From the NCBI GenBank assembly GCA_963753345.1, contig CAVWBU010000027.1:160001-224000 (forward strand): a stretch of DNA of 64,000 nt, written 5' to 3'. Below, one piece after another: positions 15,001 through 21,000 of the stretch. The position numbers are program-made. The first letter of the stretch is position 1. Every line of letters begins with the position of its first letter. Source of the DNA: an uncultured Fibrobacterota bacterium (GTDB taxonomy: Bacteria > Fibrobacterota > Chitinivibrionia > Chitinivibrionales > FEN-1185).

Positions 15001-18000
15001 CGCGCTGTCGGTGCAGGTGTCGCGCGGCTGCCCGTTCTGCTGCGATTTCTGCCTTGTTTCGCAGCTGTTCGGCCGGACCATGCGGTACCGGGATATCGAC
15101 GACATCATGGCCGAAATACAGTCGCTCCCCAAGAAGACGCTGTTCTTTGTCGACGACAATCTCACGGCAAACAAGGAGTTCGCACGGGCGCTTATGAAGC
15201 GCCTCGCTCCGCTCGGCGTGCTGTGGATCGCGCAGGTGAGCATCGAAATTGCGGACTTCCCGGATCTTCTCGCCGACATGGCCGCCGCCGGATGCATGCA
15301 CGTTCTGGTCGGGCTCGAATCGGTGAACGAGGCCAGTCTCGGCGAGGCGCATAAGAGGCAGAACAACATCGAACGATACGCCGAGGCGATACGCACGATA
15401 CACCGCGCAGGCATTCAGGTGAATGTCTCCATGATCGTGGGGTTCGACAACGACACGCTCGCCGAATTCGCCAGGATCCGCGAATTCCTACATGCCGCCG
15501 ATGTGTGGTATGTCAATCTTAATATTCTTGACGCAATTCGGGGAACTGCGCTTTTCCGGCGGATCGTGTCCGAAGGACGGTGGTGCAACCGGGAGAACAG
15601 GCTTACGGGCGGCATGTTCCCGACATTCCGGTACAAGAACATGTCGCAGACCGAGCTGTTCGGCGCCTACTTCGAAACCCTGCGCGCGGTGTATTCGTGG
15701 GACGACCTTCTGCCGCGGATTGCGCGGTTGTTTGCGACCGGATGGTTCACACGACCCGAGCGCAACCGGGACATCCGCGTGCGCGACAAACTACGCATGA
15801 CGCTCGGGATCATCCGCAGGTTTCTCGTCGATGCGGAGCCGGCGAAGCGCAGGATATTTCTGGAACTGTTCCGTCTTATTCGCACCCGGAAAGTGGCACC
15901 GGAGAAGGTGGTATTCTTTCTCCTCACCGTTGAAGGAATCCACAGGCTATATGCGGACATCGAGCCGATGCTGCCGCAATGGCGCGCAACAATCGCGGCA
16001 CGGGACGCGGCGACGGCATCGTCGGACGCGCGCGGCCAGGTGCAAAAAAACATTTCGGAGGCTTTGTAAACAAAAAACCCTACAACCTTGGTTACCATGA
16101 ACCTTAACAGGAGGCGAGCGTGAAAATGGGCTTTTTCTTTTCGGGAATTTTCTGGGGCGGCATTTTGATCCTTCTCGGCATTTCGGTTATCGTCCGGATC
16201 GTGTTCAACATCCACATTCCCTTGGTGCGCATTGCGTTTGCGCTTGTCCTCATTTACCTTGGCATACGGGTGCTGGTCGGAGATTCGTGGTGCCGATGGA
16301 GCGGTAGCGGCGGAACCGCCGTCTTCAGTGAAGTAAAGACCGAGATCTCGGGCGATTCCGGCGACCACACCATTATTTTCGGGAAAGGCGTCGTGAGCCT
16401 GACCGACATGTCGCTTGCGGAAAAGGGAAAAAGAGTCAGGATAAACACGATCTTCGGCGCAGGGGAAATTCACGTGAGCCCTTCCGTGCCGGCCATCATC
16501 AGGGTGACTGCGGCGTTCAGCGGTGCCCGGATGCCCGACGGAAACATCATTTCCTTTGGAGAGTATAGTTACAAGACAAAATCATATTCCGATCCTGCCA
16601 AGGCGATAAAAGTTGACGCAACGGTGGTGTTCGGGGGCCTGGAGATAATCGAGCAATAGGGGCCGCCGGTAGCAAACAGAAAGAAAAGAGGCTTTTGTGG
16701 GCACTGGCCATTACCAGAAAACGGCCCTCAAAGGCCATTTTTTTTGCTTGTGCGGCCTTGTATCATCCCTGATTTTAATGGGTTAGTCCCTGTTTTGGAG
16801 GCGGTCGCTCTTACCGGGGGTAAGAAAAAAACACTGGTAAACGATCTGCAACAGGGTAATATTAGTGCAGAGAGGAATCGCGCCGGATAGACGAAATGCT
16901 ATGAGAGGCCGTCGATGTCGCAATTGTCGTGTGCGGAACCTCATTTCAGCCAGTCAGGATCTCATCATGCCAAACCTCTATGAATTTGTCAACTACCGGC
17001 TGTACCTGCAGGATTTTCTCGCAGAGCACAAGAAAGACGCAGAGCCGGACTATTCCCACAAGATGATCCTTGCCAAAATGGGAATTTCCTCCACCGGTTT
17101 CCTCTCCAACGTCATTGCCGGCAGAAAGAACCTCACGCCGATCCAGATCATAAAACTCGCCAAAATCCTGCGGATGAACAAGGCCGAATCGGCGTATTTC
17201 GAAGCCATGGTGTACTTTACACAGGCGAAACTCATCGACGAAAAGAACGAATATTTCAACCGGCTGGTCACCCTGCAAAAAGTGAACCTCAAGGTTCTTG
17301 ATAAAAAGAAGATGTCCGTTTTCTCCAAATGGTACTATGTCGTGGTGCGGGAACTGCTGTATTTTTACCGCTACAACGGCAGCAATCCTTCGGGTCTGGG
17401 CCACAAAGTGGAGCCGACGATCCGCCACTCCGAGGCGGAACAGGCGGTCCGCTACCTGGAGGAGCTCGGATTGATTGAAAAGGGCGAGAACGGGTACTAT
17501 AAGCAGGTTGAAAACGCGGTAACGTCCGGCGATGAAGTCAGGTCGCTGCACCTTACCAACTTTCAACTCGCCACCATGGAGCTTGCAAAAAGGGCAATTC
17601 AGAAAATCCCGGCCGCCGAGCGCGACGTCTCCGTGCTTACCATGACGTTGTCGCAGGACACCTTTCAGATGGTGAAGTCGGAGCTCCAGCACATCAGAAA
17701 ACGCATCGCGAAAATCGCGGTTGACGAAGACAAGCCGGACAGAGTGTATCAGCTCAACATCCAGTTTTTCCCGGTCACCAAGAAACCGGAAGTGTCATCC
17801 TCCGATGAATAAGCACCTGCATACCGTTGTGCTGCCGCTTGTCCGCCTGCTGTTCTGCGGGGGAGCGTGCCTGTATTTGGAGTGCACGACCAACCTGGCG
17901 GGAAGCGTCACCGAAGGCGGCAACGTGGAGGTTGCCGGAATCGTGGTCGACGGGGCAGGCAACGCCATTGCCGGGGCCCAAGTTTCGATCCGGCCGAGTG

Positions 18001-21000
18001 ATTTTCTGAAAGACACTTCCGGGAAAACGCCGTCGCGAAATGTTTCGGCAAATGCGGTTTCGGACAGCAAGGGGAAGTTCCTCCTCGATTCGATTGACCC
18101 GGGAGAATACTGCATTGCGGCTGCGAGCGGCGATTCGCTGGCCGTCCTGGTGCGGGTGAGCCTCCTCAAGCCGGGCGATACGTCGCTTGCGCCGGCCCGG
18201 CTCATACCTGCTGCAACCATAGAGGGCACGGTAGTCGATCAGAACGGTGTCGCCAATGCAACCTATGTGAGGGCATACGGACTTGACAGGATCGCCAGGG
18301 TCGACAGTGCCACCGGCCGGTTCGCCCTCAGCGTGATTCCGGCAGGAACGTATCAGCTTCGGATCGACGTGTCTTCGCCGTTGTACACTCCCGTCGCCGT
18401 TCCGAATGTCGCATGCGCCAGCGGCGGGAATACGAACCTCGACACAATCGCAATAGCGCCGTTCTACGGAGAGAATTACGCCCTGTGGCCGTATTCCTCA
18501 ACTGTCAAGCTGAATACGACGTCTTCCGGAGCGCAGGTGACGAGCACCATTGCCGGGTTCCCGGTGCTCATCCGCCTGAGGGCACCGGCGTTTGCGTTCG
18601 GGCAATGCCTGCCGGACGGCCGTGATCTGCGTTTTGCCAACAGTAAAGGGGTACATCTTCCTTTCGAGATAGAGCGGTTCGATCCCAACGCCCAGATCGC
18701 GGACGTGTGGGTGCTGGTCGACACGGTCAAGGGGAACGATTCCACCGTTATTTCCTTATACTGGGGCAACGCCAATGCCGTGATGCAGTCGTCTTCGGGA
18801 ACGGTCTTCGACACGGGACTCGGCTACACAGCCGTGTGGCACCTGAACGACAAGGCGCTTAACGACAGGCGTGACGCCACCTTCAACGGCAACAACGCTG
18901 TTCCCGCTCCCGGAACGTATGAGGGCGACGAATGGACCTACGGGCTTATCGGCGGATGTGACAGCCTCGACGACAACGATGACCATCTGGTCGCACCGAG
19001 CATCAACGCCGGGGCGGCCCTGACCGTCAGCATGTGGATCAACATGTATGAATTGACTGCTTCCCACATGCAGTATTTCATCGGAAAAGCCGGTGCAGTC
19101 GCCGGCAGGCCGCCGCTGTATTCCCTTATGTTAAATGAAAGCAATCAACTGGCAATGAATGTGACCGTCAAAGGCAGGCCCGATTCCCTGAGCGGCGGTT
19201 CGCTTTCCATCAATTCGTGGTATTTTGTCGCCGGGACCTACGACGGAACGACGCTCAAGGTGTATGTGAACGGGGCGTTGGCAGGCAGCAAGGCGGTTTC
19301 CGGCCGGATTGACACGAGCAGCACTAATCTCTACATCGGTTACTACGACAGGGATTCCCAAAAGCTGCACGGCAAGATCGATGAAGTCCGTATGTTGAGG
19401 ATATCGGAGAGTGCGGATTGGATCAAACTGTGTTACGAAAACCAGATGCCAAACAGCACGTTTGGTATGTTTGGCAACTGACTGTTTGCTCTTTTGTTAA
19501 TCCCGCCGTCTCCGCAAGACAAGGATTTCAACGCGCGTTTTTCCCTCATTCACGAATTCCTCCCAAGCAAGCGCGCCCGCAAAACCGGCTGTGCCGGCCG
19601 ATTTCTTGAATAAATCCCACCATTGTCTGCACGGGTCGGCAATCAATGCAAAACCTCCGGGCGCAAGCGCGTCACCAAGAAACCGCAGGACCGGCTCCAC
19701 CCACCGGGCCTCGTATATTATATCCGACGCAATGATGCAATCGAACACGCGCTCAAAACAGGGATGGCGCCAGTCGGTGCATACGACAATGGAGCGCGGG
19801 GCGTGCAAGAGAATGTTGTGCCGGGAAAAACGGCAGGCGTCAAACGAAATATCCATTGCAACGCACCGGACATTGTTGCGACCCAGCAGCGCCGAAACTG
19901 TTCCAAGCCCGCTGCCAAGTTCACCTACGAGTCCGTCTTCGGGCAACGTCTGGCGCCACCTTGCCGCAAGAAAGTTGAACAGGCCGAACGACGCGGGCCA
20001 CTGCTCGGCCCAGTAGGGAAGCATCTTGTCTTTTTCGTATTCTTCGTCGGTCATTGAATCGAGGATGCCTTCGGGGTTGGCAGGCCGCACGAACTGCATT
20101 GCTCCGGCATTGGTGGCCATGGAGAACGCGACATGAGGAACGGGAAGCATGCTGTAAATTTACATTCATGAGACATCACAAAGGCAGCCAGGAATGATGG
20201 GCGCTCCGCGGCAATGCCGCGGCAGGCTGACTGCGACTTGATTTAGGTTGACCGAGGATTCTACGAGGCGGTATAATCAAGAAGTCAGAGATCACTTGAA
20301 GAAAGGAAGTGGGTGTGCAGGGTAGAAGCTGCAGACTGTACGACGAAAACCTTGTGCACGCGATCATGGTGTCAACGGGGCTTGCCATTGTCGACTACAT
20401 CAAGCAGTCCAAGAGCGTCAACGCCACGGACATCTACGATTTTGTCGAGCAGAACGCTGAGCACATCATCCGGAACACCCTTGACGATATGAACCGGGCA
20501 TGTCCCGACGGCCCCGAACCGCCGTTCGACGCCCCCGACGACGACATTCCGCCCTCTTTTTGACAGGCGCGACAAACATCACATTGCGACGCACGGCAAG
20601 CATCATTTAAATTACCATACGACATTCGGCCGAGGTGGCGAAACTGGTAGACGCAGTGGACTCAAAATCCACCGGGGGCAACCCCATGAGAGTTCGACTC
20701 TCTCCTTCGGCAATTATAAATCTCCATACCACTTCAATAGATTTTTACTTATCAACTCCTCAACTTTTCAACTTCTCAACTTCTGCCCACAATATGTTAT
20801 TTTCCACTAGTGCTGTCGCGGCGGCTTTTTTGCATCGAATGGGCGCGCAAGGGAAGGAATATTTGTGGGCATTGTCATCGGCAGCTCCGCGGTGGACTGG
20901 AATTCCTTTGTCGGAAGGGAACTCGGCAACGTCACGCTTATCCGGGAACTCGGCCGCGGGGTAATGGGCGTCGTTTTCGTAGGGTACCAGAAGTCGCTCA

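Follow-up and report, generated by a model that had tools for sequence, protein, structure and literature searches.

A TIGR02147/DUF4423 regulator and its overlapping secreted partner: a widespread gene pair that may be coupled by a peptide tag

In the RRNPP pairs (Rap/Phr, PlcR/PapR, Rgg/SHP, ComR/ComS, AimR/AimP) the gene of a regulator with an Xre-type helix-turn-helix (HTH) is followed by the gene of a secreted precursor that holds the cognate peptide, with codes specific to each paralogue. The C (controller) proteins of restriction-modification systems, of about 70-80 aa, contain neither a winged helix-turn-helix (wHTH) nor a ligand domain. The hood of HetR, an entwined alpha-beta-alpha-beta dimer, binds a short Gly-containing peptide, which moves the middle domain; PatS6 pairs as an extra strand with beta3 of one subunit and touches alpha12 of its partner subunit (PMC4649674). 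PatX, a Sec-exported precursor with an embedded peptide, stands under HetR control; it is exported, cleaved and inhibits HetR (PMC12756182). The hood and flap of HetR have been described as novel folds.

Here we characterized a gene pair located in a 64,000-nucleotide stretch of DNA (the window) from an uncultured Fibrobacterota bacterium. Judged from sequence comparisons and structure models, it would encode a self-activating regulator that is modulated by a peptide embedded in a co-translated, secreted cargo protein, a reading to which we assign a probability of roughly 70%. The features of the locus are:

16809..16825, no strand assigned: predicted operator TCTTAC-N5-GTAAGA, centre about -51.5 from the inferred start site (orthologue conservation, genome counts)
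16834..16862, + strand: inferred sigma70-type promoter with a weak -35 CTGGTA (16834-16839), 17 nt, and -10 TAATAT (16857-16862)
16967..17812, + strand: TIGR02147/DUF4423 regulator, 281 aa (profile matches; model pLDDT 83.3, pTM 0.60)
16988..17275, + strand: N-terminal Xre/HigA-like HTH, residues 8-103, recognition region at residues 41-52 (fold matches, co-variation)
17294..17524, + strand: winged-helix domain, residues 110-186, whose first helix lines the modelled peptide site (ArsR-type fold matches)
17546..17776, + strand: predicted hood-like C-terminal dimerisation and peptide-binding domain, residues 194-270 (co-variation, modelled contacts)
17805..19481, + strand: partner, predicted lipoprotein, 558 aa, whose start overlaps the regulator stop by 8 nt
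17805..17885, + strand: signal peptide (residues 1-26) and Cys27 (sequence reading; Cys conserved among orthologues)
17898..17933, + strand: peptide tag, residues 32-43 (AGSVTEGGNVEV), predicted regulator ligand (model contacts, conservation, exclusivity)
17931..18125, + strand: CarboxypepD_reg-like beta-sandwich, residues 43-107 (PF13620, E 7.9e-14)
18615..18812, + strand: DUF2341, residues 271-336 (PF10102, E 1.9e-12)
18972..19424, + strand: Laminin_G_3 / concanavalin A-like cargo domain, residues 390-540 (PF13385, E 7.8e-26)

The regulator scored above the curated cut-off of TIGR02147 (273.6 bits, cut-off 50) and matched PF14394 (116.8 bits, cut-off 30), with DUF4423 on residues 109-270. 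In the model an Xre-like HTH (residues 8-94) precedes a wHTH (110-186), and residues 112-270 match Kfla_6221 (4G6Q), for which we know of no ligand. The HTH, wHTH and 4G6Q matches of the preliminary description were recovered at a pLDDT of 83 where 85 had been given, and the 4G6Q match had a probability of 0.91 (Foldseek, E 0.25; Z 6.5, rmsd 5.5, 143 aligned residues). The N-terminal HTH domain aligned with 3PXP (Z 8.5, rmsd 3.1, 82 aligned residues) and with the HigA structure 3TRB (Z 8.0), and the winged helix gave ArsR-type matches of Z 7-7.8. For the C-terminal domain the monomer model contains two long helices and no formed strands, such that the helix-strand-helix-strand order is a prediction. 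The partner consists, in this order, of signal peptide, Cys27, the tag core AGSVTEGGN, CarboxypepD_reg, DUF2341 and Laminin_G_3. Its lipobox is atypical in that a Glu precedes the Cys, and lipidation is therefore putative. The promoter was assigned by sequence reading and from its equal spacing in orthologues, being too weak for detection by a consensus scanner.

The 19 TIGR02147 matches in the genome correspond to 18 genes and the separate tail of a frameshifted copy, while none was found in 14 control genomes. As described earlier, 17 of the 18 have directly downstream, on the same strand, a partner with signal peptide and Cys, and 13 pairs overlap at stop and start (14 if L009 starts at an upstream ATG). 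The lone exception, L018 (113 aa), had been taken for a truncated copy; it is not a one-off truncation, since intact counterparts of 111 aa with the same end exist in the genomes G002 and G004 (L122 and L099). Two regulators, L011 and L017, are interrupted, and L007 is followed by a partner whose tag is broken and whose frame spans 156 aa. The phylum-wide occurrence, previously put at 28 of 31 genomes, was reproduced in a sample of our own (27 of 31). Among 215 full-length copies, at loci that include orthologues, a downstream gene started at -62 to +30 in 182; 181 of these encode a hydrophobic N-terminus, and 85 start at -4. Partner lengths range from 126 to 936 aa, including cargo domains. 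No peptidase or transporter family recurred among the genes linked to 40 loci.

Outside Fibrobacterota 52 of 77 full-length copies have a coupled partner, of which at least 17 carry the tag with no Cys behind the hydrophobic stretch. The unrecognised module proposed earlier is upheld as a regulator with a secreted partner, while its limitation to lipoproteins and to Fibrobacterota was too narrow. Named hosts include Fibrobacterota, Bdellovibrionota and Myxococcota, among others. Clustering at 50% identity gives 20,143 clusters for the family with E up to 0.001, and 5,245 with E up to 1e-30. Single genomes hold up to about 40 paralogous pairs, and expansions are seen in cellulose degraders and bacterial predators. 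In agreement with the reported near-absence of literature, we found no paper on TIGR02147, one table entry for DUF4423 and no study of the family.

The tag has the consensus A-G-G-G-[ST]-E-T-G-N and lies in the early mature region, with a median of 14 residues from Cys to Asn. With a matrix trained without this family, scores of at least 10 bits were reached by 9 of 18 partner entries (one of the 18 is spurious, 17 are real) and by none of 1441 other signal-peptide ORFs; among 275 other lipobox-like ORFs none reached 11 bits. The core is conserved in relatives down to 58-61% regulator identity. It occurs behind both types of signal peptide and on unrelated cargo: L010 and L135 have a common tag and unlike cargo, and L135, L141 and L156 have common cargo and different tags. 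Scores below 9 bits were obtained for 59 of 181 partners, a few partners (L078, L160, L225) carry no tag, and no conserved cleavage site was found flanking the tag. A general lipoprotein sorting signal was considered and rejected, because the tag is missing from the other lipobox-like ORFs and present on the non-lipoprotein partners in Bdellovibrionota.

The preliminary description had found no operator. This gap is now filled by predicted inverted repeats that are specific for each paralogue, with offsets referring to start sites inferred from a -10 matrix. GT..AC palindromes centred at -63 to -60.5 (near -61.5) were present at 23 of 118 loci, compared to a mean of 0.9 and a maximum of 4 in 40 shuffles, while out-of-phase windows held 4 versus 2.1. 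In an unanchored test, perfect palindromes at -65 to -59 occurred in 12 of 90 cases versus 14 of 353 other promoters. Operators were found at 57 of 139 loci, all in Fibrobacterota, and the 71 loci outside the phylum showed no -61.5 peak. Each paralogue clade has its own palindrome, with like helices going along with like arms, including L324, which was out of sample. A deletion in the HTH is linked to 18-bp operators in essentially one clade.

In the window operator the arms are invariant and the spacer is variable in three of three orthologues (90-91% identity). TCTTAC-N5-GTAAGA occurs five times in the genome, each time intergenic and in four cases at -51.5/-52.5; the same arms at spacers of 0-4 and 6-12 were not found. 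In relatives 12 of 15 examined sites have this offset. Three or more copies were seen only in 4 of 61 genomes, which are those with an orthologue of the regulator; the four are congeners, such that this co-occurrence of the regulator with a small putative regulon rests on one genus. Congener G003 (99% complete, best match 37%) lacks the orthologue and has no site, and G001 has two sites with no orthologue found in its 73% assembly. A variant, GCTTAC-N5-GTAAGC, appears once each in G017 and G023, both times before a regulator of 39% identity whose recognition helix is alike, and is missing from three other genomes. The 59-62% homologues in G017 and G023 have only a half-site and lack the TCTTAC site. 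When 12 further regulators with similar helices were tested blind, two had full CTTAC palindromes (spacer 6), three had half-sites and seven had neither.

Operator and tag follow different parts of the regulator. Partial correlations of the operator were 0.19 with the recognition region (residues 41-52; p 0.018, n 32), 0.24 with the winged helix and 0.04 with the C-terminal domain. For the tag they were 0.19-0.24 with the C-terminal domain (residues 183-270; p 0.005), 0.14 with the winged helix and -0.03 to -0.13 with residues 1-103. The tag tracks the regulator given the cargo (0.25) and hardly the cargo given the regulator (0.09). The contrast between operator and tag is a double dissociation, with correlations (0.19-0.25) that are small and partly clade-level; residue-200 states, for instance, follow clades.

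A model of the regulator-tag complex scored 0.78, compared to 0.02 for the best of three controls (range 0.00-0.02). The score mark separates solved pairs (116 of 157 attain it) from mismatched ones (2 of 215), which is a rough guide here given our own alignments and 2+2 chains. Runs shared at least 83% of contacts at a partner pLDDT of only 54-56, and the tag, bound with both flanks attached, was the sole part of the 34-residue chain in confident contact. Modelled contacts involve residues 118-133, 183-200, 211-227 and 244-257, with residues 222-226 of copy 2 next to 244, 248 and 251 of copy 1. When pairs were ranked by mutual information, ten of the best 20 mapped to the 46 interface residues (p 7e-4). 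Arg244 touches the tag Glu in the model, and an acidic residue is found in 43 of 48 cases with this Arg and in 4 of 15 without it. Model and co-variation are not independent, because the same sequences underlie both, and the solved structure of PatS6 in the HetR hood may have shaped the model. Altogether, the evidence suggests that the tag, for which the preliminary description had proposed no role, acts as the ligand of the regulator.

TIGR02147 proteins would accordingly be dimeric transcription factors controlled by a peptide from their own operon. The N-terminal HTH, aided by the winged helix, would bind a paralogue-specific inverted repeat of 16-18 bp centred near -51.5, -61.5 or -72. Given this position upstream of the -35 box, activation of the own operon appears quite likely. 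Some paralogues may also turn on a few unlinked genes, mostly for exported proteins. A tag of about 9-12 residues, placed behind the cleavage site and before exchangeable cargo, would bind a cleft between the 219-227 segment of one subunit and the helices and winged helix of the other; a shift of the DNA-binding parts would be expected to follow. By analogy with HetR/PatS, the peptide probably inhibits. For its route we see an even chance that it is released by proteolysis after export and re-enters the cell, as for PatX; capture of the unexported precursor is conceivable and the less favoured of the two.

A rather unlikely variant within this core claim is that the intact precursor titrates the activator in front of SecYEG and export frees it, resembling the export-coupled logic of FlgM and ExsE on the general Sec pathway. 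It would suit lipoproteins and SPase I proteins alike, and would fit the early mature position of the tag, the flanks in the modelled complex, the frequent start at -4, which puts the precursor beside fresh regulator, and the lack of a dedicated peptidase or importer beside the loci. However, dozens of insulated tag codes per genome would seem wasteful for one Sec status, DUF5666 partners repeat the tag in tandem like processed precursors, and PatX demonstrates an export-cleave-return route in a diderm. That the peptide is instead a co-activator in a positive loop, like those of the quorum-sensing systems PlcR/PapR and ComR/XIP, is unlikely: the closest binding geometry, HetR/PatS, is inhibitory, a TPR domain is missing, and the precursors are large cargo proteins rather than dedicated peptides, even if the overlapping order of regulator and secreted precursor is that of RRNPP pairs and a peptide might stabilise an active dimer, given that the model of the monomer shows no formed C-terminal strands.

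The palindromes could also be repressor sites of an ordinary Xre/HigA-type autorepressor. The closest HTH folds are indeed HigA antitoxins and repressors, start sites come from the -10 matrix only, and some clades have additional half-sites near or below -10; yet the sites are concentrated upstream of -35, spaced by helical intervals, and very rarely cover the core promoter, and the window -35 is poor, which makes this distinctly unlikely. We consider it improbable that the complex is spurious and that the tag, passed on together with the operon, serves in sorting, tethering or folding. Gly-rich tethers often follow the lipid Cys, the partner pLDDT is low and co-variation is modest, but this would leave unexplained the absence of the tag from other signal-peptide ORFs, its presence on both signal-peptide types and unrelated cargo, its staying with the regulator when cargo changes, and the low control scores. 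Finally, TCTTAC-N5-GTAAGA might belong to another regulator of the genus, with TIGR02147 genes as mere targets, as the relatedness of the site-rich genomes and the sites without a gene in G001 would allow. The joint absence of site and orthologue in G003 and the clade-wise matching of helices and arms render this highly improbable.

If a self-activating regulator modulated by its partner's tag is the correct reading, then, with peptide return, each pair would be an insulated feedback circuit that monitors what becomes of one surface or secreted protein. An operator code, regulons and a ligand with named contact residues are now predicted for the family. This would add peptide-controlled transcription factors to diderm bacteria, hint at how Fibrobacterota control many surface proteins, provide a non-cyanobacterial counterpart to HetR, and offer many orthogonal peptide-regulator-operator sets for synthetic biology.

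Among known systems, RRNPP pairs are similar in that an adjacent gene encodes a secreted precursor with a (here predicted) cognate peptide. They differ in their TPR domain, for which no Pfam family was listed among 76 members of our family (Rgg2 matched at noise level, prob 0.10), and here the hosts are diderm and the precursors full-size surface or secreted proteins. C proteins share clade-specific palindromes upstream of their own gene, a co-transcribed downstream gene and the HTH fold (C.AhdI prob 0.98, C.BclI prob 0.95, both E about 0.5), but our partners are secreted and the downstream genes are not restriction-modification genes. An Xre HTH with a predicted cognate palindrome upstream of its own gene is also the arrangement of Xre-type autoregulators. 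Kfla_6221, the best match over wHTH and C-terminal domain, lacks the N-terminal Xre domain. DUF6502, on which we found no paper, has the same order of HTH and wHTH; in six of six cases the gene overlaps (-4 to -14) that of a secreted protein, which bears a Gly-rich tag of the GGTG type behind its signal peptide and is DUF5666 in two of two checked cases. Its N-terminal domain is different, the tag is often repeated, and comparison with DUF4423 gave an hhalign prob of 11.5 at E 0.0026 (model pLDDT 65 with a poor C-terminus).

HetR is a dimer of about 280-300 aa with HTH, middle domain and C-terminal hood, an architecture that the window regulator may share, and the modelled two-subunit site in the window regulator resembles that of PatS in the HetR hood. 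Sequence comparison gave no sign of membership in the HetR family: no HetR chain matched a 76-sequence profile at E up to 10, and no HetR family was among the 25 of 35 Pfam families listed. In fold comparisons 4IZZ matched at E 0.64 (prob 0.15), which is not significant, and HetR lay outside the top 50 of a further search, with the hood strands unformed in the model that was compared. HetR has its own DNA-binding domain and flap in place of Xre-like HTH and winged helix, an RGSGR-type peptide in place of a neutral or acidic tag, and a cyanobacterial host. In our family the tag is part of the product of the next, overlapping gene, where large variable cargo is attached to it, in up to about 40 paralogous pairs per genome; PatS6 has a capped N-terminus, in contrast to a tag modelled with flanks on both sides. 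We tentatively raise the possibility that TIGR02147/DUF4423, DUF6502 and HetR form one superfamily of hood-domain peptide sensors across diderm bacteria. In the most frequent form of such a sensor, an ordinary secreted protein would carry a removable N-terminal barcode that feeds back on its cognate activator. Fibrobacterota and predatory Bdellovibrionota would then have tens of insulated circuits per genome, each reading out export, shedding or substrate-triggered cleavage of a single surface protein, and HetR/PatX patterning would be a cyanobacterial specialisation of the same device.

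In the window, a TIGR02147/DUF4423 regulator gene overlaps the gene of its secreted partner and is preceded by a predicted regulator-binding inverted repeat, the operator.

Features of the window (window positions)
16120-16659, LiaF-like membrane protein gene upstream of the module (weak Pfam match)
16809-16825, predicted operator, inverted repeat TCTTAC-N5-GTAAGA
16967-17812, TIGR02147/DUF4423 regulator gene, 281 aa
17805-19481, partner gene, predicted lipoprotein of 558 aa, start overlapping the regulator stop by 8 nt
20629-20712, tRNA-Leu(CAA), about 1.1 kb past the module
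23985-24077, tRNA-Ser(GCT)
45134-45208, tRNA-Pro(CGG)

With a probability of roughly 0.7 we consider the regulator to be modulated by the tag, a Gly-rich peptide behind the signal peptide of the partner. The genome (94% complete) encodes 18 such regulators. In agreement with the preliminary description, 17 of them have a gene for a Cys-containing signal-peptide protein next on the same strand, 13–14 with overlap. The claimed phylum-wide spread held as well, with counts now of 27 of the 31 sampled genomes and up to 43 TIGR02147 matches. At 50% identity the family comprises 20,143 clusters. Among 215 full-length copies with downstream sequence (orthologues included) the downstream start lay at -62 to +30 in 182, and 181 of these coupled proteins had a hydrophobic N-terminus. 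Among the named loci are ones from Myxococcales, Silvanigrellaceae, Bacteriovoracia and Pseudobdellovibrionaceae. Of the 77 copies from outside Fibrobacterota, 52 were coupled to a partner and the remaining 25 stand alone; in at least 17 of these 52 partners the hydrophobic stretch is not followed by a Cys and the tag lies behind an SPase I-type site, with unrelated cargo. From the proposed regulator-lipoprotein module of Fibrobacterota the pairing thus remains, but not the restriction to lipoproteins and to this phylum. Among the uncoupled copies, L187-L190, L192, L193, L206-L208 and L212 retain part of the pocket and may sense tags produced elsewhere. Some loci are damaged: in the genome under study the regulators L011 and L017 and the partner of L007 are interrupted, be it really or by assembly errors, and L124 of genome G002 is shortened by an apparent insertion-sequence transposase (judged by eye).

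The one exception to the pairing, L018 (contig C24, 57692-58033), encodes 113 aa made up of only the N-terminal HTH domain and a basic tail, and has no partner gene. It had been taken for a truncated copy, which we reject: since intact 111-aa counterparts of the same make-up (L122 and L099) are present in two other genomes (G002 and G004), L018 represents a conserved short form. That L018 lacks both the C-terminal domain and a partner agrees with a correspondence between this domain and the tag. The short form is possibly a ligand-blind regulator or an antagonist.

The tag has the consensus A-G-G-G-[ST]-E-T-G-N. Of the 12 partners in the genome that passed the signal-peptide filter, 11 scored at least 11 bits, compared to none of the 1441 remaining ORFs, which include 275 lipobox-like ones. 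An out-of-family matrix, trained on 68 loci, gave at least 10 bits for 9 of 18 partner entries (17 real partners and a spurious one) versus 0 of 1441 other signal-peptide ORFs; at 8 bits these numbers were 11 of 18 and 5 of 1441. The motif list that belongs to this analysis was picked post hoc with the data already seen. Scores under 9 bits were obtained for 59 of 181 partners, with variants visible by eye in most and no tag in a few. At L051, L078, L160 and L225 the secreted protein behind the regulator has no recognisable tag, and at L225 the tag is found on the second downstream gene (L281). In Peredibacter (G031) a Gly-Asn-Gly-Gly pattern occurs at the mature N-terminus in 5 of 29 matches, of which three lie directly behind a regulator, one is the second gene and one is located about 11 kb from a regulator. 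A role of the tag as general lipoprotein sorting signal was rejected, since none of the 275 other lipobox-like ORFs reached 11 bits and the tag is found on non-lipoproteins.

The fold proposed previously for the regulator was recovered (model pLDDT 83) for an Xre/HigA-like HTH (residues 8-94) and a winged helix (110-186); the C-terminal part, described as dimerisation domain, was matched by 4G6Q only. Modelling two regulators together with two 34-residue partner N-termini resulted in a score of 0.78 (0.78, 0.77 and 0.80 for the individual runs) versus 0.02 for the best of three controls. Of 157 solved complexes 116 had reached the score mark, as had two of 215 mismatched pairs; for the present complex these rates apply only roughly. 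The runs had at least 83% of the contacts in common, with a partner pLDDT of at least 54. From the partner chain the tag alone (residues 32-43) made contacts, lying against residues 219-227 of one subunit and 118-133, 183-200 and 244-257 of the other. The 46 interface residues accounted for ten of the top 20 mutual-information pairs (p = 7e-4, with model and co-variation statistics drawing on shared sequences), among them the modelled contacts of residue 128 with tag Thr36 and of 119 and 200 with tag Gly38. Arg244 contacts tag Glu37 in the model, and an acidic residue occupies this tag position in 43 of 48 cases with Arg versus 4 of 15 without. The model supports the predicted binding of the tag to the regulator.

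DNA and tag recognition seem to reside in different domains. Operator similarity tracked residues 41-52 (partial r = 0.19, p = 0.018; 32 loci, < 60% identity) and the winged helix (0.24, p = 0.002), but not the C-domain (0.04) of the same loci. For 76 pairs with < 70% identity, tag similarity tracked residues 183-270 (0.19-0.24, p = 0.005), compared to 0.14 for the winged helix and no tracking of residues 1-103 (-0.03 to -0.13). Tag similarity correlated more closely with the regulator when the cargo was controlled for (0.25) than with the cargo when the regulator was controlled for (0.09). These sequence-derived effects are small and partly clade-level; a quick tree, of whose 71 branches 14 were well supported, served only for judging the independence of rows.

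While no operator had been found previously, aligned upstream regions revealed clade-specific inverted repeats as predicted operators of the regulators, with fixed arms and free spacers. Their offsets refer to a start site set by a matrix-inferred -10 box; among the sequencing runs listed, none was of RNA. In an unanchored test, palindromes at -65 to -59 were found at 12 of 90 loci versus 14 of 353 other promoters when perfect, and at 20 of 90 versus 46 of 353 with one mismatch. The GT..AC form, which was selected after this test with the data already seen, occurred at -63 to -60.5 at 23 of 118 non-redundant Fibrobacterota loci, compared to 0.9 on average in 40 shuffles (maximum 4). Three in-phase windows provided 30 such palindromes versus 2.5 expected by shuffling, and three out-of-phase windows 4 versus 2.1. 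An operator could be named at 57 of 139 loci. Outside Fibrobacterota no peak of the -61.5 type was detected in 71 loci. Repeated 7-mer counts within clades gave hints at most, and the promoter inferred for the window regulator escaped a consensus scan.

The operator of the window regulator, TCTTAC-N5-GTAAGA, has five copies in the genome, all intergenic and four at -51.5/-52.5, and none at other spacers from 0 to 12. Of 16 sites found in relatives, 12 of the 15 examined share this offset. Of 61 genomes, the four that carry a 90%-identical orthologue are the only ones with at least three sites; G001 (73% complete, its assembly lacking the orthologue) has two, six genomes have one, and fifty, including the congener G003 without orthologue, have none. 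Similar recognition helices go with similar operator arms: a 39%-identical regulator is preceded by GCTTAC-N5-GTAAGC, which G017 and G023 have at no other position. A blind test on 12 new regulators with similar helices had a mixed outcome, with two full repeats (spacer 6), three half-sites and seven times nothing; at locus L324 the repeat was as forecast from its helix. Loss of one residue from the HTH turn pairs with 18-bp rather than 17-bp operators in 7 of 9 cases (L008, L010, L057, L076, L141, L156, L171), the rows with the deletion being essentially one clade in a quick tree. Two other palindromes of the genome, of the L002 type (8 at spacer 5, several of them ahead of genes for secreted proteins, and no more than 4 at other spacers) and of the L004 type (21 copies versus at most 5 at other spacers), represent further regulons or unrelated repeats.

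Recurrent operator targets across genomes are the regulator operon itself, the gene of a 398-aa secreted protein, and an aldo/keto reductase lipoprotein divergent from an NADH:flavin oxidoreductase. Rarer targets are a 432-aa secreted protein, a SASA carbohydrate esterase and a DUF2341 + Laminin_G_3 protein resembling the cargo of the partner. In five genomes the operator of the window paralogue is found between an L001-clade TIGR02147 gene (contig C41, 58169; L248, L249, L250, L254) and the gene divergent from it, and is phased for the latter, which encodes a secreted protein of 398-412 aa without Pfam match. Cross-talk between paralogues via this operator is possible.

Positions upstream of -35 at helical intervals are typical of class I activators. 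The regulator dimer would bind the operator at such positions and switch on its own operon and a few unlinked genes; we consider it quite probable that it is an activator. The coupled partner would supply the tag, which would sit between dimer domain and winged helix and alter DNA binding, the peptide being rather likely an inhibitor. How the tag would reach the regulator can be explained in two ways. Export, cleavage and re-entry into the cell has about even odds: PatX provides a precedent, and the diversity of tag codes and the tandem tags of DUF5666 partners favour it, but a conserved third gene for a peptidase or transporter was absent beside the module (40 loci, the largest neighbour family occurring at two). 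The same absence fits the capture of the unexported partner precursor by the regulator, as do the early-mature position of the tag, the tight gene coupling and the modelled binding with flanks attached; we rate capture as the somewhat less probable route.

The module is real and widespread, and apparently undescribed. In agreement with the preliminary description we found no paper on TIGR02147, in a literature search with little subscription-journal coverage, and a single table entry for DUF4423, which gives Bd3700 as upregulated during growth in prey. The accessible text of PMC4704652 covers, of this naming series, TIGR02145 and TIGR02148 only. Combined searches on the module returned nothing relevant, and the same literature search yielded no paper on DUF6502. 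Several Pseudomonadota HTH_26 regulator clusters (ESM Atlas, 206-267 aa) resemble the regulator by features (0.84-0.85), as leads only.

RRNPP pairs have the same gene layout, but their regulators carry TPR, which is absent here; with C proteins the module has the Xre-palindrome logic in common. DUF6502-DUF5666 is a parallel undescribed module: all six DUF6502 genes (L260-L265) overlap the gene of a DUF5666-type secreted protein whose Gly-rich tags are single or in tandem, and four of the six have a GGGAA/TTCCC-like repeat upstream (by eye). A profile comparison of DUF6502 with DUF4423 reached an hhalign probability of 11.5 (E 0.0026). DUF6502 is absent from the genome under study, a metagenome scan found no relatives, and its model matches HetR weakly (Z 5.7, rmsd 11.1, 159 aligned).

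For the regulator, sequence comparison provided no membership with HetR and at most weak Xre-type matches among solved structures (best E 0.23), and an ESM Atlas search with residues 105-273 no usable match. Fold searches did not establish HetR homology, one reason being that the dimer sheet is missing from the monomer model. By analogy, the mode of action would be most like that of HetR with PatS/PatX. According to PMC4649674, the HetR hood is an entwined alpha-beta-alpha-beta dimer, in which PatS6 pairs with beta3 while touching alpha12 of the second subunit, shifts the flap and frees the DNA. PatX, according to PMC12756182, is exported by Sec and cleaved by PatP, and its hexapeptide inhibits HetR.
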